From Escherichia phage ELT3, in the sequence record PQ368571: a stretch of DNA of 64,000 nt, one strand, 5' to 3'. The notes below the pieces were generated by a model. The model was not told where the DNA came from and made no database searches. It saw only the letters and a program-made list of their open reading frames with translations. The position numbers and the translations under genes are program-made. Positions 1,969 to 60,801 of the stretch are shown piece by piece. Each line of letters starts with the position of its first letter. Position 1 is the stretch's first letter.

Positions 1969-2160
1969 ATGGTAATTTTTAATCGCGATGGTATCATAGT
2001 TCGGCAGCACCCATTCCTTGAATACTATCAGGTTGAACAATGGGGATATGGGGATTGCTCGCGCTCATATGGTCAAAGCTGGGGATACCGGACAGTTTTT
2101 GAATCAACTAATATTGACAAAGTACGACAGAAAGTTTTAGAGCTTCTTAACGATAAGTGA
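1969..2160 (+). CDS. hypothetical protein (63 aa)
   Basis: ORF with RBS GTGAGGA upstream of ATG. Confidence 0.4.
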   Translation: MVIFNRDGIIVRQHPFLEYYQVEQWGYGDCSRSYGQSWGYRTVFESTNIDKVRQKVLELLNDK

Positions 2161-2170
2161 GGATTACATC

Positions 2171-2539
2171 ATGGAAATTCAAAACAATTACGAAAAATGT
2201 GTTATTATCAATGATTTGCAACGTCAATTGCATCATTACGAAACCGATTATAAAACAGCAACCAAAACCGGAAAGCTGAAAGTGTGGGAAGTATGGTATA
2301 ACCGGAACTATCTGGGAAGCATCCACAAACTTGATCGCAGTGATGTTTATACAATGCATGTAGGTGCTTGTGGTGAATCGGATGTAGCATCTAATTTCAT
2401 GGAAGCACTTGCATTCTATGTAGAATATCTGGTAGACTATATCGAGTTGGAAGAGGAAGTGGTAGAATTGCTTCCTCCACCGGAAGAAGCACCGGAAGCA
2501 ACGATCCTGAAAGCATTAAAGAAAATCTTTGTTAAGTGA
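2171..2539 (+). CDS. hypothetical protein (122 aa)
   Basis: ORF with RBS GAGGA; acidic C-terminal tail. Confidence 0.45.
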   Translation: MEIQNNYEKCVIINDLQRQLHHYETDYKTATKTGKLKVWEVWYNRNYLGSIHKLDRSDVYTMHVGACGESDVASNFMEALAFYVEYLVDYIELEEEVVELLPPPEEAPEATILKALKKIFVK

Positions 2540-2547
2540 GGTGAACT

Positions 2548-2880
2548 ATGAAAAATGTACTGATTGTGTGGGAACTGATTCCAGAAACTACTGAATTATA
2601 CATGGTACAGGTTGACAATAAAGAATTTGAAATTCTGAAACGCGTCAACTGCAAATATATTAACATTGATGACATGACCCCAGAAATGGACTATGTAAAC
2701 TATGCTCTCATGCAGCCTAGTTGGATTATGGATGAAACTAAAGCAGACGCCGAATCGCTGGGTGTACCGGAAGAAGTATTAGCGAAATGGCATCAATTCA
2801 AAGTTGAAATAAAAGAGGGCGAACCGTTTATTCCTAGCGGTATGATCGATGCGGTGATCGTAACAGGTTTTCATCTGTAA
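2548..2880 (+). CDS. hypothetical protein (110 aa)
   Basis: ORF with RBS GAGGTG upstream. Confidence 0.45.
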   Translation: MKNVLIVWELIPETTELYMVQVDNKEFEILKRVNCKYINIDDMTPEMDYVNYALMQPSWIMDETKADAESLGVPEEVLAKWHQFKVEIKEGEPFIPSGMIDAVIVTGFHL

Positions 2881-2892
2881 GGGTATTCTATA

Positions 2893-3225
2893 ATGTTTAA
2901 CTTTGATCAATATGAATCATGGAAGGCGACCGAATTGAAAGAGGCAGCGCGGTTAATCACACCGCGTCTTTATCCGGTGTTGTTTAGCGCCGATAAAGTA
3001 ACAAGGGAAGTAAACGAGGCGCTATCGGCTTTAGGCTATCTGATCGATAAAGTAGAGAAAACATCGGTATTCACAAATAGCGTAGAATATACCCGGTATC
3101 GAGTGTTTTTAGATTCCTTGCTCGTTGTTATTAAGGCACTAAATGATCATAACTACACCATGAACATGACGAAAATAATCGACGAAGCAAGAATTATGAC
3201 AGAGAATATTTTCGGTAAATTTTGA
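2893..3225 (+). CDS. hypothetical protein, paralog of 3334..3663
   Basis: Shares length and C-terminal motif (ENIFGKF / ENVYGKFPE) with the neighbouring ORF. Confidence 0.5.
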   Translation: MFNFDQYESWKATELKEAARLITPRLYPVLFSADKVTREVNEALSALGYLIDKVEKTSVFTNSVEYTRYRVFLDSLLVVIKALNDHNYTMNMTKIIDEARIMTENIFGKF

Positions 3226-3333
3226 TTATGAAAGATGATGAATCGTTGAAAATTGCACTGGTTATGATATTACAAGGTATAGAATTAGCAAACCACGAAA
3301 AAATGTTGAAACAACAGCGTGAAATTATGAGAG

Positions 3334-3663
3334 GTGATTATGATCGAGTTTGAAATTGACAACTTTCACGAAAAAGCAGAAGACCTAACCAAAATTTTGA
3401 TTAGTCGAGGTGCATATAATACGAAAGATATTATAAAAGAAGTTAATGTAGCGATGGACGCGATCCGAAAGGAATTTAAACATATTTCAGCGATTGGAGA
3501 AAATGGTCATCTTGAAGATGTTGAGCTGGTAGCACTGCGACGCTATTACTTCTTTGTTGATTGCATCATTGATCTAGCTAAAAATTATAGTCATTACATG
3601 AAAGATATTGTAAAAGATGCACGTAAGCTGGCAGAGAATGTTTACGGGAAGTTTCCAGAATGA
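3334..3663 (+). CDS. hypothetical protein, paralog of 2893..3225
   Basis: Tandem paralog; RBS GAGAGGTG upstream. Confidence 0.5.
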   Translation: MIMIEFEIDNFHEKAEDLTKILISRGAYNTKDIIKEVNVAMDAIRKEFKHISAIGENGHLEDVELVALRRYYFFVDCIIDLAKNYSHYMKDIVKDARKLAENVYGKFPE

Positions 3664-3908
3664 AATTAGAACAAGCGATTGTATACTTTGAGATGGGCTA
3701 TGATATTGCTCGTGTGGAGTGGGAAGACGGTGATTTTGTCCGATTGATTGATCTTCCAGAAACAGCTATTGCACTGGTCAAAGTAGAAAACGGCATACAA
3801 CGCAATTACGCGTTTTCTGACGAAGACAAACAAGCCAATGACTGGTACGCTACCTGTTTTCATCATACAGCGTCAAAATGCGATTCAGGCGCGTCTATGC
3901 GCCAATAA
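3660..3908 (+). CDS. hypothetical protein (82 aa)
   Basis: Start overlaps preceding stop (ATGA), suggesting translational coupling. Confidence 0.45.
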   Translation: MKLEQAIVYFEMGYDIARVEWEDGDFVRLIDLPETAIALVKVENGIQRNYAFSDEDKQANDWYATCFHHTASKCDSGASMRQ

Positions 3909-3912
3909 AAAG

Positions 3913-3938
3913 AAGGGGAGGCCGAAAGGCTTCCCCTT
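3913..3938. terminator. Bidirectional intrinsic terminator hairpin between convergent genes
   Basis: aaggggaggccgaaaggcttcccctt flanked by A/T runs on both sides. Confidence 0.55.
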
Positions 3939-3942
3939 TAAG

Positions 3943-4599
3943 TTATCTAATCCTTCCGAGGATTCTGGCAGATTGATTGCAAAGAGTATCTAAATTCTCA
4001 ATGTCAATATCCGGTTTATTCTTCCATGAAATGGCGATACTACCAGAATAGACATTATCGAGATTGAATATAGGACAAGAATACATGAAACCTATATCGA
4101 TATTCTCTAATTTCTTTTCTCTTGATGGAATATACTGGAAATCTTTATCGGTAAAATATGATTTACCTAAAAGATGCCTACGATATTCTTCACTCGTTTT
4201 ATTGATAGGGAATCCGCCTAAATTTTTTTCATCGATTGTGTGTGGTAGCTTTCCTTCATATGCCACCAAATCAACAAAATAGTTTAGGTTTTTCGGACGA
4301 AAACTAAAAACAGCAGAAAAATCGGCATCAGCCGACACATGAACTATCTGTAACTGCTCCTGTGCTGCATTATCAAAATTGCGGTCTTTCTCTACCTGGA
4401 GAATGTGAGCATAAGTCTCATAACGAGTCTCTTTATAAAGCGCAAATAACTCGTTTTTACTATAAACGACAAATGCCAATATGGACAACACGACGGCAGC
4501 AAAAACACGAAGTACGAGCAACTCCGTGCTTTTAGTTGTGAAAATAGCGCGCAGGACATTTGAGATAGCAAAGTCTTTCCCTTTTTCAGAAACTTGCAT
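3943..4599 (-). CDS. t: holin (T4 gene t homolog)
   Basis: 218 aa, same length as T4 T; strong similarity to T4 holin as recalled (e.g. LEQLQIVHVSADADFSAVFSFRPKNLNYFVDLVAYEGKLP, CNQSARILGR); positioned after the tail fibre genes as in T4. Confidence 0.85.
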   Translation of the reverse strand: MQVSEKGKDFAISNVLRAIFTTKSTELLVLRVFAAVVLSILAFVVYSKNELFALYKETRYETYAHILQVEKDRNFDNAAQEQLQIVHVSADADFSAVFSFRPKNLNYFVDLVAYEGKLPHTIDEKNLGGFPINKTSEEYRRHLLGKSYFTDKDFQYIPSREKKLENIDIGFMYSCPIFNLDNVYSGSIAISWKNKPDIDIENLDTLCNQSARILGRIR

Positions 4600-4912: not shown

Positions 4913-7858
4913 TTAATTCTTTTTAAGTTCCGCTAGTTCAGCTTTAACGGCTTTCAATTCTTCGCTCATTTCCTGAAACGCCTTAATTAAAAGAGCGTTG
5001 ACAGCAGAGTTAGAAATTGTTAAGATCTCTTCTGGCTTATCAGGATCGCCGATCTTAGAAGTTGTTACTGCTTCCGGCAATTCTTTTTCAAGATCCTGAG
5101 CAATAATACCAACTTCATGAGCGATAACAGTGCGGTCCGTCAAAGACTTAACCTTATCGTAGGTGTACACAGTCAAGCGATTAACTTTATCGGTGGCATT
5201 CTCCTTATACTCTTCCTTATTGATTTTAAGGCGAGCATCAGAACGAATATAAACATCGTTAAAGCTACCATTACGGCTTGCCTGGAAGTCACCGCTCGCA
5301 CTATGGTCAAAAGTTGCATCATTAACATGTAGACGCGCCAATGCGTTTGCTATATTTCCACCTGAAACGTGAATACCCATAGCTGCAATGTGGAATTTGC
5401 CCCAATGTGTCGCTTTCCACACGTTATGTGCAGAGTTTTCGGTATTCTGACAATCAACCAATAAGCCAGCAGCACGGTCTCTCCATTGTGTCCAAGCACC
5501 ACCTTGAACTTGTCCGCGAATCAAACCGTTACCAGATCCACTAACAGTAGCACTAGTTCCTAATTGGATCGTCTTATTGCCAAATATCCAATCTTGAGTT
5601 TGTTTTTGACCACGGAAACGAATAACGCCGTTGTCGTCACAATAAATCAAACCCAATTCTAAGCCGTCAGGATCTCTAAACCAGATGTGCTTATTGCCAG
5701 TGCGACGAAACTCAATGTCTGGTCCAGTTATCTTAATATTACCGGAAGTCTCAAAACCCTGAGATTGAACTTTCCCGTTAACATTGAATATAATCTCATT
5801 TGTTCCCGGACCGCCTGGACGTTGGGTATACCAATGCCACCCGCTTTCATCGCCGCATTCAAATATTTGTTTACGACTATCGTTACCCCATACACGTAGA
5901 GTAAACGTAGATGTGGCGGTCCCTTTACCCCATTTAATTTGACCAGCAGATTCCAAATCACCGAAAAATTTAGTTTTAATCGCACCAGTTGATAAAGTAC
6001 GTTCAGTGGTAAAATGTGCGCCCTGACTGTCTTCAATCTGTAGGATGTTATCGCGACCGTTATTGCTATCACCCCAATGGTTAAACCGGAAGTAATCGCG
6101 GGAATTTAATCGCCCAGCGTCGAAAGTCAAATGCCCTTTCTTAATGTAAACGTCATTACTAAAGCGAGCGGCACGAGAAGCACGTTCTAACGTTAATGCT
6201 TCTTCGTTACCATCACCGCCTAATTGAACGTTACCGGAAGTTAAATCATAAATGAATGGACGATAGGCATTCCATCCACCATACTTATCATTTTCAGCAG
6301 TAGAAAGAAGATAAACTTTAGTGCCGTCATTACGCCAGAATGCACCGTAATTACCAAAGATCATACGGTATGCATCAGAGTTAGCGGAATAATATTGACC
6401 ATTGGTATATACAATTTTGGTTGCACCTGTTCTGAAAGATATTTGACCAGATGTTTCTAGAACAGCACTGTTTTGTCCAATATCATTATTCCACACAATA
6501 GCATCACTAGTACCATCCGCATGACCGATATAACCACTACGTTGGTTTTTACCATCACGACGATCCCACCACGCCATATATGCAGCTTGACCAGTCTGGC
6601 GATGTAAAGTCATCGCATTACCACTACCATGCAATTCCATTTTACCAGTAATTACATATCCTTTATAGCTACCAGGTATAGCACTATTAGAATCAACTCT
6701 AAGAACTTCCGTAGAATCTGTAGCACCAGTAGCAAGACGATATACAGCACCCTGAATGGTTTCATGCCAAACCATTTCGTTATAGTTGCTACGGAATTTA
6801 CGAATATATTTTCGTCCAGTACCTCTATCATTACTCATGTGAACAATATCATAACTATTTTGTGTGTTGTCGTCAAAACTCAACACACCTCGTTTGTTTT
6901 CGGTGTTAAAAAGAGTTACCGCGCGACCGCCAATAACATTATCACCAACAGGACGATCAACAACAAAGTCTGGAACGTCATGAACTACCAGATTAACACC
7001 AACACTTTTACCAAATTCAACAATAACGTTATCAGTGTAACGCTGATATTTCACATAGATATCATAGTTATCACCAGAAGTATTAACAGCCAAAACATCA
7101 AATGATTTGTTTGTATTTCGGCGGTATGCAATAACGTTAACACCTTTAGGGCGACCATTTCCACTGCGAATAACAATTTCTACAATATCAACTTGATCGT
7201 ATGCAGTAACGTTATATCCGTTACCACCATGAATACGGAAAAATACGCTAAGACCGTTTTGTGGAATCATTGCAGTTGCTAATTTAAAATAGCCTTCAAC
7301 GATATCACTAGAAGATGTAGCAAGTTTAACGTTCTTAACAAACATGCGGTCAACTTCTTGCTTGCTATAAACGTTCAATTCTCCTGGAGTTGGTTTATCA
7401 CCTTCGTGATATACCTTATAGCTAAATGCTTTTTGACCTTCTTTATTATAGCCATAAGTTTCTACACGCGATCCAGTGTGTCCATACTGGAAAGTAAATC
7501 CTCGACCATGCTGAACACCAGTAGGATGAGGAACGTTTAGCGTTAGTTCTAGAAAACCATCAAGACCATTGGTACGGAAAGCGCCAAAGTAGTTAAGATC
7601 TCGCGCTGTCTGATCTTCCAGATAATTGGCGGTTTTACTTAAAATATAATTATTTCCTTTAACCTTACCTGCCATTGTAACATCGCGGTCATAAACCGGA
7701 GGACAACTTAAATTGATAATAGCACCGGAATCATTTTTAGTAAGAAGATATTGATCCGCAAGGTTGATTGCCAATTCCCCCGGATTCATCGTACTAGCAT
7801 CAGGTTTACGACCTTTAGTGCTAGTGCGTTTAAATTGGATTCTGCTTAAATCTGCCAT
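4913..7858 (-). CDS. 37: long tail fibre distal subunit gp37 with C-terminal intramolecular-chaperone (peptidase S74-like) domain
   Basis: 981 aa; N-terminus MADLSRIQFKRTSTKGRKPDAS...GELAINL resembles T4 gp37 N-terminus; C-terminus has SDARLK...IAQDLEKELPEAV...ALLIKAFQEMSEELKAVKAELAELKK typical of auto-cleaving fibre chaperone domains; synteny 34-35-36-37. Confidence 0.8.
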   Translation of the reverse strand: MADLSRIQFKRTSTKGRKPDASTMNPGELAINLADQYLLTKNDSGAIINLSCPPVYDRDVTMAGKVKGNNYILSKTANYLEDQTARDLNYFGAFRTNGLDGFLELTLNVPHPTGVQHGRGFTFQYGHTGSRVETYGYNKEGQKAFSYKVYHEGDKPTPGELNVYSKQEVDRMFVKNVKLATSSSDIVEGYFKLATAMIPQNGLSVFFRIHGGNGYNVTAYDQVDIVEIVIRSGNGRPKGVNVIAYRRNTNKSFDVLAVNTSGDNYDIYVKYQRYTDNVIVEFGKSVGVNLVVHDVPDFVVDRPVGDNVIGGRAVTLFNTENKRGVLSFDDNTQNSYDIVHMSNDRGTGRKYIRKFRSNYNEMVWHETIQGAVYRLATGATDSTEVLRVDSNSAIPGSYKGYVITGKMELHGSGNAMTLHRQTGQAAYMAWWDRRDGKNQRSGYIGHADGTSDAIVWNNDIGQNSAVLETSGQISFRTGATKIVYTNGQYYSANSDAYRMIFGNYGAFWRNDGTKVYLLSTAENDKYGGWNAYRPFIYDLTSGNVQLGGDGNEEALTLERASRAARFSNDVYIKKGHLTFDAGRLNSRDYFRFNHWGDSNNGRDNILQIEDSQGAHFTTERTLSTGAIKTKFFGDLESAGQIKWGKGTATSTFTLRVWGNDSRKQIFECGDESGWHWYTQRPGGPGTNEIIFNVNGKVQSQGFETSGNIKITGPDIEFRRTGNKHIWFRDPDGLELGLIYCDDNGVIRFRGQKQTQDWIFGNKTIQLGTSATVSGSGNGLIRGQVQGGAWTQWRDRAAGLLVDCQNTENSAHNVWKATHWGKFHIAAMGIHVSGGNIANALARLHVNDATFDHSASGDFQASRNGSFNDVYIRSDARLKINKEEYKENATDKVNRLTVYTYDKVKSLTDRTVIAHEVGIIAQDLEKELPEAVTTSKIGDPDKPEEILTISNSAVNALLIKAFQEMSEELKAVKAELAELKKN

Positions 7859-7904
7859 TTTATAAAATCCTTAAACGGTTATTAGAATAATATTATTTAG
7901 AAAA

Positions 7905-7923
7905 GCGGGGAGATAATCCCCGC
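7905..7923 (-). terminator. Stem-loop between genes 36 and 37 (weak U-tract)
   Basis: gcggggagataatccccgc hairpin. Confidence 0.3.
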
Positions 7924-7928
7924 TAAAA

Positions 7929-9419
7929 TTAGAAAGTACCAAAATCAATCACCGCATTAAGTGGAACCGCTCCAACATCAGCCGGAGTAGGTTTATTACC
8001 TTCATGATAAAGCTGATATCGGTCCACGGTTTGAGTATTGTTTCGAGAACGGAAAAACACGACCTTTGAGTCGTGGGTGATCCCCAGCTTTTCGGTCCCT
8101 TTAATATCACTAATACGGTGAATCATAGCAGTACCATCAGCACTATTTAACCCGGCATAGTAGTTATCACCATTATATGCACCTCTAGCCGTTCTAACAC
8201 CGTTTACAGCCGGAACAGTTAACGGTCCTGTCATGGTATCGCCAGTGACGTTAACATAGCGAATATCTGCTAATTTACGGTGATCTACATAGTTCCATGC
8301 AGTCCATGATTCATTAGAACACGAACGCCAGCACATCGGATGGTCAATAGATTCAGGATAATACACCTGAACAATTCGACGAGTACCAACAGCATCTTCT
8401 GGGCGATATACCATCAAAACGCCGTTATAATAGCTATCAGACGGTTTATTAGTACCCGACCCAGCATTTTCCACACGATAGATACCGCGATTAATAAGAG
8501 TGTTCCAATCAACGTTTCCAATGATGGTTGGATTTGCCACCATTGATTTTCTCTCAAAGTAGCTCAAACGAACCAATTCATTAGGACCAACAGGATCGTT
8601 TGTCGCCAACATTCTAGGCGCTTGCAAGTTACCTTCCATAATATCACCAGCACGTTTAACCTGTGCATCATTGGTGACATTACCTAGTCCAACATCGGCT
8701 TTAGTTGGTTTATTGTTGGTGTGATAAAAACGACCTTCTTTGCCATTAACAAAAATGGTAGGCTCATCTTTACTTCGGAAGACCAACGTGTCAAGAACGT
8801 TACCATAATAGATCTTAGTCGCATCAAAATTAATTAAATCACGTTCCCTTGCAATTAATTTAGAATCAACCGATAGTTTAACAGTGACAGTGTTTAAATT
8901 ATACGTTCCTGAGAGAGTATCACCGCGACGGGAAACTAAATCCAAATCATTATTCGTTGGTTTATTAACAGGGCTATAGACTCGTTGACCTGTGTCTTTA
9001 ATGGTTGCCCCTTCGATAGTCCCTTTAGACTTAAATTCGCCCGTTGTGGTGTCAATATACGCCATGATAACGCCATCACGGGCATTAACAAAGCCAATTG
9101 ACTTCCATGAATGCAAACCCCAGCTTACACCGTCAAAATTAGCAGCATCGCTCTGTCCTTTAAAAATACCGTTCTTTTTGGTTTCTCCAGCCGATGCACT
9201 ACCTACGCTTAAACCTTCCTCAAAATGAACTTGCTTTTGAAATGTACCACCTTCGGATGCACTAACAGCATCAAAATCGGTAGCCAACGGTTTATCAAAA
9301 GCGGTATAGATTTTATGACCTTTGTAGAAAAGCTGATCCCCCGCTGGCTGGATCGTCAAGTTTCCTTGCGTCCAAATGGGAGATCCACCTACAGTAGATC
9401 CATATTTCAAATCTGCCAT
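7929..9419 (-). CDS. 36: long tail fibre hinge/distal connector gp36 (extended, 496 aa)
   Basis: N-terminus MADLKYGSTVGGSPIWTQGN matches T4 gp36 N-terminus as recalled; synteny. Confidence 0.75.
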   Translation of the reverse strand: MADLKYGSTVGGSPIWTQGNLTIQPAGDQLFYKGHKIYTAFDKPLATDFDAVSASEGGTFQKQVHFEEGLSVGSASAGETKKNGIFKGQSDAANFDGVSWGLHSWKSIGFVNARDGVIMAYIDTTTGEFKSKGTIEGATIKDTGQRVYSPVNKPTNNDLDLVSRRGDTLSGTYNLNTVTVKLSVDSKLIARERDLINFDATKIYYGNVLDTLVFRSKDEPTIFVNGKEGRFYHTNNKPTKADVGLGNVTNDAQVKRAGDIMEGNLQAPRMLATNDPVGPNELVRLSYFERKSMVANPTIIGNVDWNTLINRGIYRVENAGSGTNKPSDSYYNGVLMVYRPEDAVGTRRIVQVYYPESIDHPMCWRSCSNESWTAWNYVDHRKLADIRYVNVTGDTMTGPLTVPAVNGVRTARGAYNGDNYYAGLNSADGTAMIHRISDIKGTEKLGITHDSKVVFFRSRNNTQTVDRYQLYHEGNKPTPADVGAVPLNAVIDFGTF

Positions 9420-18618: not shown

Positions 18619-18645
18619 AGCCTCCCTTCGGGGAGGCTTTTTTAT
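18619..18645 (+). terminator. Intrinsic terminator after gene 32
   Basis: cctcccttcggggagg hairpin followed by a T-run. Confidence 0.7.
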
Positions 18646-57336: not shown

Positions 57337-57362
57337 AGCCATCCTTCGGGGTGGCTTTTTTG
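57337..57362 (+). terminator. Intrinsic terminator after hoc
   Basis: agccatccttcggggtggct followed by tttttt. Confidence 0.7.
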
Positions 57363-57372
57363 TTTTTAGTGC

Positions 57373-57400
57373 TTGACAGAGCGATTTAGATGCCTATAAT
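57373..57400 (+). promoter_or_regulatory. Sigma70-like promoter (TTGACA-N16-TATAAT)
   Basis: -35 at 57373, -10 at 57395. Confidence 0.5.
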
Positions 57401-57526: not shown

Positions 57527-57724
57527 ATGAATGAGATTGTACGATTGATCAAAGAAGCACCAATCGAGATGTATTTTCTGGCTTTGGTTGCAACAATGGT
57601 CTATCAGCTAGTCGCATGTCATGTGTGGAAGTCGGAAAATGCGTTTATCCGGTTTATTGGCACTATCATGATCCAGTTTCCGGTGCTGATCACTATCCTG
57701 TTAATCGTCAATGGGGCGAAGTGA
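57527..57724 (+). CDS. small hydrophobic (membrane) protein (65 aa)
   Basis: Two hydrophobic stretches; RBS GAGGTGA upstream. Confidence 0.4.
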   Translation: MNEIVRLIKEAPIEMYFLALVATMVYQLVACHVWKSENAFIRFIGTIMIQFPVLITILLIVNGAK

Positions 57725-57999
57725 TGGACAAGAAAACAGCGTTAATGGTTTACATGCTACGCGAAGACCACGGTCTTAATTTTGTTGATATTGCTAAGAA
57801 GATTGGCGGGATCAGCGGACAAGATGCGGCTAAGGCATGGTTGATGGTAAAAGACGCACGCGAGGCTTACGCCAACCGTGAAAAGGTTGTTTATCGTAAA
57901 CACCACATCAACAAAAAATTTAAAAATAAAGTTCAAAAACGTGTTGACATGCCAAATAACACTGTTATAATGGACGCATTCAAACGGGCAATGTCCTGA
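57724..57999 (+). CDS. small basic protein with helix-turn-helix-like segment (91 aa)
   Basis: ATG overlapping upstream stop; LREDHGLNFVDIAKKIGGISGQDAAKAW looks like an HTH. Confidence 0.35.
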   Translation: MDKKTALMVYMLREDHGLNFVDIAKKIGGISGQDAAKAWLMVKDAREAYANREKVVYRKHHINKKFKNKVQKRVDMPNNTVIMDAFKRAMS

Positions 58000-58045: not shown

Positions 58046-58483
58046 ATGAAATTCCGTAAAAACCACGTAGCAATGAAAAAGGCAATGTTTGAAGCATTCA
58101 AAGCAGTTGATCAGGGCGGTGTTACTCTGATTGAGCAAATTAATGTTGATGTTTGGCAATCTCCGGCGATCACCTGCTCCCGTCTTGCTACGGCTGGCCT
58201 TCTGAAAGTTCACAGCTCTACCGCATACGACGAAGCATTGCAAGTTATTAAGGCTTTTGCTGGAGACGTTACCAGCAAGTGGGTCTATGAGAATAAAGGT
58301 GAAATTGCGGTTGCTCACGTAGGCAACAATATCCAGATGGAAATCAAGATTAAGGAAGGGTCTAAACGCAATCAGATGCTTGTTCGCTTCCAGCCATACA
58401 AAACTAACGTAGTGCCGGATGATCTGATCATCTCTAAGAGTAATGTTACCATTCGCCGAAATCAGATCGTTATCAACAAATAA
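58046..58483 (+). CDS. hypothetical protein (145 aa)
   Basis: ORF with RBS GAGGTGA; terminator downstream. Confidence 0.5.
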   Translation: MKFRKNHVAMKKAMFEAFKAVDQGGVTLIEQINVDVWQSPAITCSRLATAGLLKVHSSTAYDEALQVIKAFAGDVTSKWVYENKGEIAVAHVGNNIQMEIKIKEGSKRNQMLVRFQPYKTNVVPDDLIISKSNVTIRRNQIVINK

Positions 58484-58491
58484 TTAACATT

Positions 58492-58516
58492 AGCCGTCCT
58501 TCGGGGCGGCTTTTTT
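58492..58516 (+). terminator. Intrinsic terminator
   Basis: agccgtccttcggggcggct followed by tttttt. Confidence 0.7.
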
Positions 58517-58540: not shown

Positions 58541-58750
58541 GTTTACATGTGCACAATATTAATACTGTTTGATTAAATTATGATCAAAACGAAGAAAGAT
58601 CTTTAGAACATAGAAAATGTATCTTTGGTTAATTATTAATCACTACATATTGTAACACAAATGTTATACTCCGTAGGAGTTCGCGAAGCGATATCCTTTT
58701 GTGTAGTTTTTACATGTATGATTAAATTATGATCAAAACGAAGACTTATC
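58541..58750. repeat. AT-rich non-coding region with two copies of a direct repeat (25-nt core gattaaattatgatcaaaacgaaga at 58571..58595 and 58720..58744)
   Basis: Exact 25-nt repeat, each preceded by a tacatgt motif, 149 nt apart. Confidence 0.6.
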
Positions 58751-58897
58751 TTATAGAATAATAAAAATTTGTTTCGAACATTTATTAGTCAATTGCTGGA
58801 AGTGTTTTTATTGCTCGCTGTGCTCGCTTCCGCTACGCGGATACTTGTATTTGTTATTAACTTGTAGTATGATACTGCTTTCTATGGAGGAAATATT

Positions 58898-59485
58898 ATG
58901 TTTGACCAGTTACAAGATCTATTTGGAGTAAAACCACTTCGTAGATGTGCTTTAATAGGCTCTAGAAAAGCGCCTAGCGACATTTTGATAATGGCTAGTA
59001 CCATTGGGAGGGTATTGTCAGAAAATCGCGTTGTAGCGCATTCTGGAGGGGCTTACGGTATGGACAATGCTTTCATGAAGTATTACGATCCAGATTATAG
59101 AAAAATTTTCATTCCAAATTGGAAGTTTTATGACCACAAGCATAACGGTCATGATGTGATTGCATGGCAAACCTTAGAACAAAAAAATCTGGCGATGGAT
59201 GAATTAGAACATGTTTATGATAATCCTCGTTCTATACCGTTATACATGCAAAATCTGTTTTCTAGAAATGTTGCTCAAGTCTTAGGTGAGACACTTGATG
59301 ATCCTGTAGATTGTGTGATATTCTGGGCGAAAGAAGTTAATGGAATCGTTTCGGGAGGAACTAGAATTGCTGTTTATGTTGCCCGTAGACATGGGATACC
59401 ATGTTTTAACTTATATCATCAAGAAAATAGATCCGCCGTCGAAAAAATCTTGGGCGGATCTGACTTGTCTTGGTTAGATATTTAG
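58898..59485 (+). CDS. DprA/Smf-like (SLOG-type Rossmann fold) protein
   Basis: ALIGSRKAP, HSGGAYGMD and GTRIAVYVARRHGIPCF resemble DprA Rossmann-domain motifs; located where T4 has rnlB. Confidence 0.4.
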   Translation: MFDQLQDLFGVKPLRRCALIGSRKAPSDILIMASTIGRVLSENRVVAHSGGAYGMDNAFMKYYDPDYRKIFIPNWKFYDHKHNGHDVIAWQTLEQKNLAMDELEHVYDNPRSIPLYMQNLFSRNVAQVLGETLDDPVDCVIFWAKEVNGIVSGGTRIAVYVARRHGIPCFNLYHQENRSAVEKILGGSDLSWLDI

Positions 59486-60727
59486 TTAAGCGTTGTCAAT
59501 CTCAAGCGGTGGCAGTTCGATTCCTAAAATGTAGGACATTTCTGAACGTCCAGCCATTTTACCCCAATCGTCACCCTTGATGACCTGGTGTTCTTCCTGA
59601 TCAACTTTTGATGTATATGGGTTGACAGAGAGTGAATAACGATTCATAATAGCTACATGATGCTGGAAGCTATTAGGGTCAATTACGCTCTTATACGCGC
59701 CAGCGCCGTCGGCTTCTGTATATGGAGAGTAGAACAGAGAACCTACACTCTCCATATCACCGATCATGTGCTTACAACCAACGAGCATATAATCGAAAGG
59801 TGTTGTCGTGTCTGCGTACACTTCCAGACCGCAACGTAGACGACCTTCGCTTAGAGCATTGTCGGTTTCTTCCATCCATCCGGTAGATTGCAGGAGGCCA
59901 ACAACGCGAGAAGACGCCAAAACGTATGTACCAGCAAAGGAGGAAGTCCGCAACATTTGATTGCTCATTTCGCAAGCATAGCGGTAAAGTTCACGCGCTT
60001 GTGTTGGTGCATCCTGAACGCTAACGAGAGAAAGTACGCCATCAGGGGTGATCCCTTTAATTTTATAGCGAGATGATACAGTGATCAACTTCTGAATAAT
60101 ATCTTTGTTGATCTCTTCGGAAGCAACAGTAGCCAGAAGATCAATTACAGAGTTTTCAGAGTTGATTTGGCTTGCCTCAAGATCCTGCATCAATTCGGTC
60201 GTGAATGAGGTTTTCAGTTTACGAGAACCTACATTAACCTGCCATTTATCAAACTGCATAGAGGTAGACGAAATTTCGGTGTTTTTATCTTCAAAGTATT
60301 CTACCGATGCACAATCGCTATAGAAACGAATTTTGTTTGTCATTACGCCTTTAAAGATTGCAGCTTCTGGAGTTTCGGCATCTTCACCGACTGTACCAGC
60401 GGTCACAACTTCGTATACAACATCGTCTGATTTGAACAGTGCGCCTTCGTCATAAGATTTTTCTTTTGAAAACTCTTCAATCTCTGTGCGATCACCAGCC
60501 GCGCCACCGTAGGTTGTAGCAGTTCGGAAAGTCATCTGACCATCACGATTAAGATAACGTAGGCCGTACAATGCAGATACTGGTTGATCCGTTGGCTGGA
60601 TTGCTACCAGATCAGAGAAAATCAGGTTGTTTACCGCGCGAGTTAATGATAATAGTTGCGGTCGCGCTGTCTGGTTAGCTACTGAGGAAGTAGATTCCCG
60701 CAACAGTTCAGTAAAAATATGAGTCAT
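59486..60727 (-). CDS. 24: capsid vertex protein gp24
   Basis: Similarity to T4 gp24 as recalled (ELLRESTS, NKWQ..V.SRKLKT, ITVS.RYK..GIT, C-terminal SANPYT); start set at the ATG matching the T4 N-terminus, downstream of the late promoter. Confidence 0.88.
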   Translation of the reverse strand: MTHIFTELLRESTSSVANQTARPQLLSLTRAVNNLIFSDLVAIQPTDQPVSALYGLRYLNRDGQMTFRTATTYGGAAGDRTEIEEFSKEKSYDEGALFKSDDVVYEVVTAGTVGEDAETPEAAIFKGVMTNKIRFYSDCASVEYFEDKNTEISSTSMQFDKWQVNVGSRKLKTSFTTELMQDLEASQINSENSVIDLLATVASEEINKDIIQKLITVSSRYKIKGITPDGVLSLVSVQDAPTQARELYRYACEMSNQMLRTSSFAGTYVLASSRVVGLLQSTGWMEETDNALSEGRLRCGLEVYADTTTPFDYMLVGCKHMIGDMESVGSLFYSPYTEADGAGAYKSVIDPNSFQHHVAIMNRYSLSVNPYTSKVDQEEHQVIKGDDWGKMAGRSEMSYILGIELPPLEIDNA

Positions 60728-60764
60728 GTTTATGAATCCTGTATTTGCCTTAATGGATATATCA

Positions 60765-60772
60765 TATTTATA
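60765..60772 (-). promoter_or_regulatory. T4-type late promoter TATAAATA upstream of gene 24
   Basis: Minus-strand TATAAATA 38 nt upstream of the ATG at 60727. Confidence 0.55.
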
Positions 60773-60801
60773 CAAAAAGAAAAAGGAATCCGAAGGATTC
60801 C
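60773..60801 (-). terminator. Intrinsic terminator between the small ORF and gene 24
   Basis: ggaatccgaaggattcc hairpin followed by a U-run on the minus strand. Confidence 0.5.

Follow-up and report, generated by a model that had tools for sequence, protein, structure and literature searches.

The Rossmannoid SLOG superfamily, reportedly delineated by Burroughs et al. in 2015, contains domains that bind small molecules, as ThsA does with 3'cADPR and LOG with AMP. The DprA domain of this superfamily is defined by two ssDNA-pocket motifs, G-[STA]-R and [FLY]-x-x-R-[ND], and in DprA itself Arg52, Phe140, Arg143 and Asn144 hold one inserted base and the backbone (Wang et al.; PMC3950713). ShosA, a DprA-like antitoxin that binds both ssDNA and RecA, likewise needs these two arginines to bind ssDNA. 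In viruses, SLOG proteins have been surveyed computationally by Iyer, Burroughs, Anantharaman and Aravind (2022; PMC9503650), who reported fusions to Macro, NADAR and DUF4326 domains and predicted that these proteins sense or degrade soluble ADPr derivatives. NADAR removes ADP-ribose from guanine in DNA, and gp30.3 of T4 (AdfN) defeats the DarTG1 defence. The phage family treated here is not new to the databases: it is already catalogued, as PHROG 768 and under a RefSeq product name. Our literature search found no experimental work, whether on binding or genetics, for any member of this DprA-like family.

We analyzed a 64,000-nt stretch of Escherichia phage ELT3 (PQ368571), hereafter the window. 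The gene of interest, which we call the SLOG gene, occupies 58898..59485 on the plus strand, with an ATG start and a TAG stop at 59483-59485, encodes 195 aa and carries a Shine-Dalgarno GGAGG (58887..58891, plus strand) 6 nt 5' of the ATG. The initial annotation had quoted three DprA-like motifs in its product, and all of them are present in the translation: IGSRKAP at residues 20-26, HSGGAYGMD at 48-56 and GTRIAVYVARRHGIPCF at 154-170. The protein is 100% identical to its RB49 counterpart and at least 95% identical to proteins in 58 Krischvirus-type records, and the 3.5-kb region around the gene shows 98-99% identity to 58 Krischvirus-type genomes. By these identities the source of the window is a Krischvirus, an RB49/JSE-type T4-like coliphage, and the ORF is a real, well-conserved gene, far beyond a chance reading frame. 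The AF2 model of the product has a pLDDT of 94.7. The JSE orthologue bears the RefSeq product name "DprA-like DNA recombination-mediator protein".

The protein matches the PHROG 768 profile almost from end to end (E 1.2e-60, 205 bits, residues 15-187 against profile positions 4-181 of 191). Relatives are found by tblastn in 1,354 of 50,697 phage records (about 2.7%), from many host genera, and an exhaustive HMMER profile search recovered 4,319 cluster representatives, most of which stand alone and are about 180 aa long. In a set of 138 diverse members, conservation is complete or nearly so at G21-S-R23, P26, S49-G-G-A-x-G-x-D56, P73, R123-N124, Q127, G130, G153-G-T155, A158 and N171. Within the SGGAxGxD loop G50 and D56 are invariant and S49, A52 and G54 reach at least 96%, while G153, G154 and T155 of the GGT loop are conserved at 99-100%. 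Residue 48 is Arg in 76% of the family and His in the ELT3 protein. Isoelectric point proved indecisive as a discriminator of DNA binding: it is 6.4 (mildly acidic) for this protein against a family median of 8.6, with 32% of members acidic.

The fold is three-layered, alpha/beta and Rossmann-like, matching known SLOG members, with G21-S-R23 placed after the strand at 16-21 and the glycine-rich loop S49-G-G-A-x-G-x-D56 after the strand at 46-49. Both profile and structure searches returned SLOG/DprA matches and, together with the motifs, bear out the initial reading of a DprA/SLOG-like Rossmann protein, so that fold and family membership are established. DprA is the best match both by sequence and by structure. 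Indeed, when the family profile was run against all PDB sequences, the significant matches were to DprA only (E about 3e-6, over the first 50-70 residues). Profile-profile alignment with 55 enterobacterial DprAs extends over 145 columns and the whole Rossmann domain, with the motifs in the expected register, albeit with weak statistics (probability 46%, E 2e-4); the hhalign comparison with a single Smf sequence was uninformative (probability 21%).

As read from the aligned residues, the protein retains the DprA base/phosphate pocket, comprising R23, L120/R123/N124 and the SGGAxGxD and GGT loops. Motif 1 of PMC3950713 is G21-S22-R23 (codons at 58958..58966, plus strand), which HMMER aligns with GTR50-52 of Helicobacter pylori DprA (HpDprA). 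The loop after strand 2, S49-G-G-A-Y-G-M-D56 (59042..59065, plus strand), aligns with SGGALGVD of HpDprA. Motif 2 of the same definition is L120-F-S-R123-N124 (59255..59269, plus strand), paired by hhalign and BLASTP with NFPRRN of Escherichia coli Smf. Finally, the GGT loop, G153-G-T155-R-I-A158 (59354..59371, plus strand), is the equivalent of SGS in DprA and of GGxGT in LOG, with Ala at the position of the LOG catalytic Glu. We counted the motifs in two sets of members (n=138 and n=114): motif 1 is retained in 131/138 and 113/114, motif 2 in 123/138 and 105/114, and both together in 117/138 and 104/114, as well as in the SLOG domain of every fusion protein examined.

This is nevertheless not an orthodox DprA. 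A Pfam search of the protein returned DprA (PF02481) alone, at 22.3 bits against a gathering threshold of 29.6 and over residues 15-60, and the score for the NCBIfam dprA equivalog TIGR00732 was 14.4 against a cut-off of 191.15. Among the 138 relatives, 96 match Pfam DprA weakly (best E 8e-7) and 18 match SLOG cluster 4. Enterobacterial DprAs have the architecture PF25317+PF02481+PF17782, whereas the same Pfam search found neither the SAM-like N-domain PF25317 nor the C-terminal winged helix PF17782 in this 195-aa single-domain protein. Compared with bacterial DprA/Smf (PF02481; 4LJK/4LJR, 3UQZ, 3MAJ), identity is about 15-20% and TM about 0.5, which implies that the periphery differs, including any dimer or RecA surface; the dimer and RecA interfaces are not conserved in sequence even among DprAs. 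The phage family also has invariant positions of its own (P26, P73, F77, Q127, N171) and, in contrast to DprA and its competence genes, is often linked to NADAR or NAD-metabolism genes.

Other SLOG relatives are more distant. Structural scores are lower than those of DprA for LOG, or 'lysine decarboxylase-like', phosphoribohydrolases and for the cADPR sensor ThsA, and neither the protein nor its 138 relatives match Pfam LOG (PF03641). In place of the LOG catalytic motif PGGxGTxxE the protein reads S-G-G-T-R-I-A158, and Ala stands at the Glu position in 132/138 members, which argues against a LOG-like hydrolase. The other SLOG family common in large phages and giant viruses, YspA/YAcAr (DUF2493), co-occurs with this type of domain in giant polyproteins, but the protein has no Pfam YAcAr (PF10686) match, and YspA-type proteins in BFVD score at TM about 0.40-0.46 (E>1e-3), against 0.6-0.8 for true family members. 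Because the scores stay below the curated cut-offs and both the accessory domains and the LOG catalytic motif are missing, we file the protein under PHROG 768, which on sequence grounds is a divergent phage sister family of the DprA domain inside the SLOG superfamily. It belongs over its full length with the viral SLOGs of PMC9503650, sharing their stand-alone architecture and their NADAR and DUF4326 fusions. That survey placed most viral SLOGs in a 'YpsA-like clade'; here DprA is clearly the closest characterized relative and the ssDNA motifs are kept, so that, compared with the earlier prediction, weight shifts toward nucleic-acid binding.

In the window the gene order is uvsW (minus strand), inh, hoc, three small ORFs and the SLOG gene (plus strand), which converges on gene 24 (minus strand), with 23 and 22 beyond; in JSE, likewise, the orthologue is flanked by three small ORFs, themselves downstream of hoc, and by the convergent capsid-vertex gene 24. 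In T4 it is rnlB that converges with gene 24, and 24.2, 24.3, hoc, inh and uvsW come next. The initial annotation was thus right to place the gene where T4 has RNA ligase 2 (Rnl2), but to read this as a replacement is misleading, as JD18, Slopekvirus and Pseudotevenvirus keep both genes. Klebsiella phage JD18 (Jiaodavirus) has hoc, small ORFs, rnlB and the SLOG gene in this slot, the last of them converging on gene 24 and overlapping the rnlB stop with its start. Slopekvirus Matisse and Pseudotevenvirus IME-CF2 keep the pair, with NAMPT four genes downstream, and so do nine IMG/VR contigs, among which L022 represents a separate lineage; in all of these groups the SLOG gene directly follows rnlB (L003 2991-4546; L002 2953-4543; L004 2915-4531; L021-L029). 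Two independent searches found the two genes 6 nt apart in phage W14-4. By tblastn, no Rnl2 remnant was found in the 415-nt gap upstream of the SLOG gene or in the rest of the window, and both Rnl2 and NAMPT are absent from the whole JSE genome. The simplest history would start from an rnlB-SLOG pair in the ancestor, with loss of the SLOG gene in T4 and of rnlB in Krischvirus and no substitution. Since hoc lies upstream in all the rnlB/SLOG loci compared and either gene can persist on its own, the adjacency probably reflects the inherited synteny of a single ancestral region and not coupled function.

Several features of this region deserve mention in their own right. The SLOG stop (TAG, 59483-85) abuts that of gene 24 (TTA, that is TAA on the minus strand, 59486-88) with zero intergenic bases and no terminator, so transcripts of the SLOG gene should run antisense into late gene 24. 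Gene 24 itself spans 59486-60775 in the ORF list (TTG start, 429 aa); the JSE annotation gives 413 aa (1,242 nt), so that translation probably begins at an internal ATG some 48 nt past the TTG. Among the three small ORFs between hoc and the SLOG gene (58046-58483, 57527-57999), one is a gp24.3 homologue according to JSE, and the 145-aa ORF at 58046-58483 is without annotation. Contig L022 has two tandem gene-24 paralogues (6574-9092), each 43-45% identical to gp24 of the window, and contig L016 a second, diverged hoc-like ORF upstream of hoc (2051-4433). In other phages, unannotated ORFs overlap the 3' end of the SLOG gene; they carry no Pfam domain, only those of Slopekvirus and Pseudotevenvirus are homologous to each other, and they were set aside. 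The region contains no tRNA genes or credible Rfam matches.

Upstream of the SLOG gene a strong intrinsic terminator hairpin, AGCCGTCC-TTCG-GGGCGGC plus T6 (58492..58516, plus strand), ends the preceding transcription unit, and the T4-type late promoter motif TATAAATA is absent from the 415-nt non-coding gap. By these two features the SLOG gene is a transcription unit of its own, and its expression would be non-late. A sigma-70 scan of the plus strand of the gap gave no promoters at 9/12 or better, and we accordingly propose only a weaker candidate, TTGTAT-17 nt-TATGAT (58845..58873, plus strand; 8/12 to consensus, under the scan threshold), a block that, unlike most of the gap, is conserved in the diverged contig L017. 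With the promoter a prediction, the timing of expression is one too. Near-identical terminator hairpins (AGCCnnCC-TTCG-GGnnGGC plus T6) occur at 57337-57361 and 18619-18643, and 12/12 sigma-70 promoters lie close to hairpins, at 57373, just past the second hairpin, and at 57944; these elements flank the small ORFs that separate hoc from the SLOG gene. The three hairpins and their promoters resemble the mobile 'promoter-early stem-loop' cassettes reported from RB49-type phages. The gap also holds a 38-nt direct repeat in two copies (58566-58603 and 58715-58752), 149 nt apart and 89% identical, with an exact 25-nt core, GATTAAATTATGATCAAAACGAAGA; the repeat is found nowhere else in the window (0 expected by chance), and it is conserved in JSE and L016 and absent from L017. 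Directly 5' of the candidate promoter there is a small hairpin, TCCGC-TAC-GCGGA (58829-58841). At the same site L017 has TCGGC-GTA-GCCGA, one compensatory base-pair change in an otherwise diverged spacer, and from this single covariation the hairpin may be a regulatory element.

Fusions and neighbours offer another view of the family. Among the 150 best of the 4,319 representatives, five are fused to NADAR (three two-domain NADAR-SLOG proteins and two polyproteins of about 1,480 aa that also contain YAcAr and SLOG-cluster-4 domains); DUF4326 and a complete RecJ exonuclease are fusion partners in one representative each. We also examined the SLOG-gene neighbours in eight metagenomic contexts with precomputed Pfam tags. 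In one (L038 3694-5558) NAD kinase, NADAR and the SLOG gene follow each other in overlapping ORFs, the NADAR-then-SLOG order being that of the natural fusion proteins P0047, P0123 and P0154; a NADAR gene lies 0.56 kb downstream of the SLOG gene in one of the eight, NAMPT and PRPP synthetase lie upstream of it in one, and a sponge gene of the Acb2/Tad1 type lies 1.2 kb away in one. In L037 (3737-6601) the SLOG gene overlaps at its start with a Gad2 (anti-Gabija) gene and at its end with one for an AAA/NACHT-like NTPase, an arrangement that may be an anti-defence gene cluster; it sits downstream of topoisomerase II subunits. In the remaining metagenomic contexts, as in annotated phages from other families, the neighbours are replication or nucleotide-metabolism genes. 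Of 31 loci, which are highly redundant and represent few Straboviridae lineages, 12 have an adjacent Rnl2 gene and 10 a nearby NAMPT gene, and NADAR is adjacent in two of about 16 independent contexts; the scans with single proteins covered 15 loci. Elsewhere in its genome JSE encodes UvsX, UvsY, gp32, Rnl1, PseT, gp30.3 (NADAR-type), Tk.4 (Macro), Alt, ModB and 57B.

We propose, with a probability of roughly 40%, that the protein is a pocket-based binder of single-stranded nucleic acid, an accessory or counter-defence factor acting on phage ssDNA and not primarily a loader of RecA or UvsX. Its hold would be that of DprA and ShosA, with one base inserted in the pocket and two arginines holding the backbone. 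Given the replacement of the LOG catalytic Glu by Ala, it would be a non-catalytic binder and not an enzyme. The separately transcribed, non-late product could work as an accessory factor on phage ssDNA intermediates, in a protective or counter-defensive role suggested by the fusions and neighbours, delivering or holding ssDNA substrates for coupled enzymes such as NADAR or the ssDNA exonuclease RecJ. In Krischvirus it might cooperate with the gp30.3 NADAR encoded elsewhere in the genome. Single-stranded nucleic acid is our preferred ligand because conservation falls on exactly the residues with which DprA and ShosA bind ssDNA, and because the fused NADAR and RecJ are known to act on DNA. Against this, the pocket is that of a single nucleotide, so that sequence cannot separate ssDNA from a free nucleotide, and the neighbouring NAMPT, PRPP synthetase and NAD kinase, like the three-SLOG polyproteins, fit a small molecule at least equally well. 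The NADAR association is moreover a minority pattern, T4 AdfN works without a SLOG partner, and the mildly acidic pI, His48 and the differing periphery of the ELT3 protein also count against the proposal.

The main rival is the small-molecule reading of viral SLOGs (Iyer et al., 2022), which would have the pocket bind, and perhaps degrade, a soluble ADPr-derived or other nucleotide signal or toxin of host immunity, such as the cADPR isomers or ADPr derivatives of TIR/Thoeris-type systems, making the protein a sponge, a sensor or an ADPr-processing enzyme beside NADAR, Macro, DUF4326 and NAD+ salvage. For PHROG 768 we consider this somewhat less likely than the binding of single-stranded nucleic acid. 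The NAD-metabolism neighbours and multi-SLOG polyproteins are what such a function would lead one to expect. However, the conserved set of residues is the DprA ssDNA pocket and not the LOG catalytic one, and DprA leads the matches in sequence and structure alike. The demonstrated substrates of NADAR are ADP-ribosylated bases in DNA and not soluble signals, viral SLOGs of the YspA/YAcAr type form a separate structural group (TM about 0.4), and our literature search found no anti-Thoeris or anti-CBASS sponge with the fold of the SLOG protein. Some leads from this literature were followed and dropped: TadIV-1, the T4 sponge against type IV Thoeris with escape mutations in gp24, is Vs.3, an unrelated 92-aa protein; the NAD+ reconstitution pathway NARP3 comprises PnuC and NadR and no SLOG protein; and a paper on Klebsiella anti-defence does not mention DprA or SLOG.

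A classical recombination mediator, that is a dimer that binds ssDNA and loads host RecA or phage UvsX onto strands coated with SSB or gp32, is what the public annotation proposes. The DprA pocket motifs and fold are compatible with it, as is a slot near uvsW and, further off, uvsY. We nonetheless find such a role improbable. The phage already has UvsX, its dedicated mediator UvsY and gp32, and T4 manages without a SLOG gene; the match to DprA falls under the Pfam and TIGRFAM cut-offs and is limited to the N-terminal third, the SAM-like and winged-helix domains are missing, and RecA loading leaves the NADAR and NAD-metabolism partners unexplained. The initial annotation had suggested recombination or the sequestering of a nucleotide signal, either of which is possible; of the two, a RecA-loading role is the less likely, given the encoded UvsX, UvsY and gp32, the absent accessory domains and the recurrence of these partners.

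Like ShosA and PsyrA of the ShosTA and PsyrTA defence systems, the phage protein is a DprA-type domain found outside natural transformation and apparently in the setting of phage-host conflict, and it has in common with ShosA the two core arginines for ssDNA binding. It could be imagined as an antitoxin mimic that replaces labile ShosA or PsyrA once infection has silenced host expression or ssDNA titrates them, so blocking abortive infection by ShosTA or PsyrTA. This appears very improbable. The PADLOC matches to PsyrA (E 4e-5) and ShosA (E 3.5e-4) are confined to residues 15-61, a generic 45-residue N-terminal motif, and conservation of the RecA-contact residues could not be demonstrated. ShosA, which binds RecA and is encoded beside a bacterial PRTase toxin, is stabilized by an N-terminal SAM domain and by an additional helix (alpha14). 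None of these contexts applies to the phage protein, and among the SLOG-gene neighbours (the hoc-region ORFs and gene 24) there is no gene for a toxin of the PRTase or RecQ-like kind. The family also occurs in phages of many hosts, far past the known range of ShosTA and PsyrTA. As for an RNA-repair partner that binds or prepares damaged RNA ends or bases for Rnl2, the overlapping or abutting rnlB ORF directly upstream in Jiaodavirus, the L022 lineage, Slopekvirus and Pseudotevenvirus and the tight spacing in W14-4 are its evidence, but we give it hardly any credence, as the shared upstream hoc points to inherited synteny, each gene persists alone (rnlB in T4; the SLOG gene in Krischvirus, with JSE lacking Rnl2), and Rnl2 is not adjacent in Acinetobacter Straboviridae or in the sampled contexts outside Straboviridae.

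A bolder extension of the ssDNA-binding proposal, which we regard as speculative and unlikely as it stands, is that the family is a dedicated counter-defence module. It would recognize exposed or ADP-ribosylated bases on single-stranded phage nucleic acid and pass them to NADAR-type glycohydrolases (gp30.3/AdfN, fused or separate), or else stand in for DprA-like antitoxins such as ShosA, and so represent a new anti-defence class against DarTG, ShosTA and similar systems.

The initial annotation of the ELT3 gene correctly recognized a family that was already catalogued, and is no discovery. Databases call this family a "recombination mediator" from a sub-threshold DprA match, an annotation that overstates what is known. 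If the protein were a binder of soluble signals, it would be a new sponge fold. If the link to NADAR is functional, the family would add a part that recognizes ssDNA or ADPr to the phage defence against nucleic-acid ADP-ribosylation by DarTG and similar systems, and would offer in RB49/JSE-type coliphages a simple, testable candidate gene for that role.
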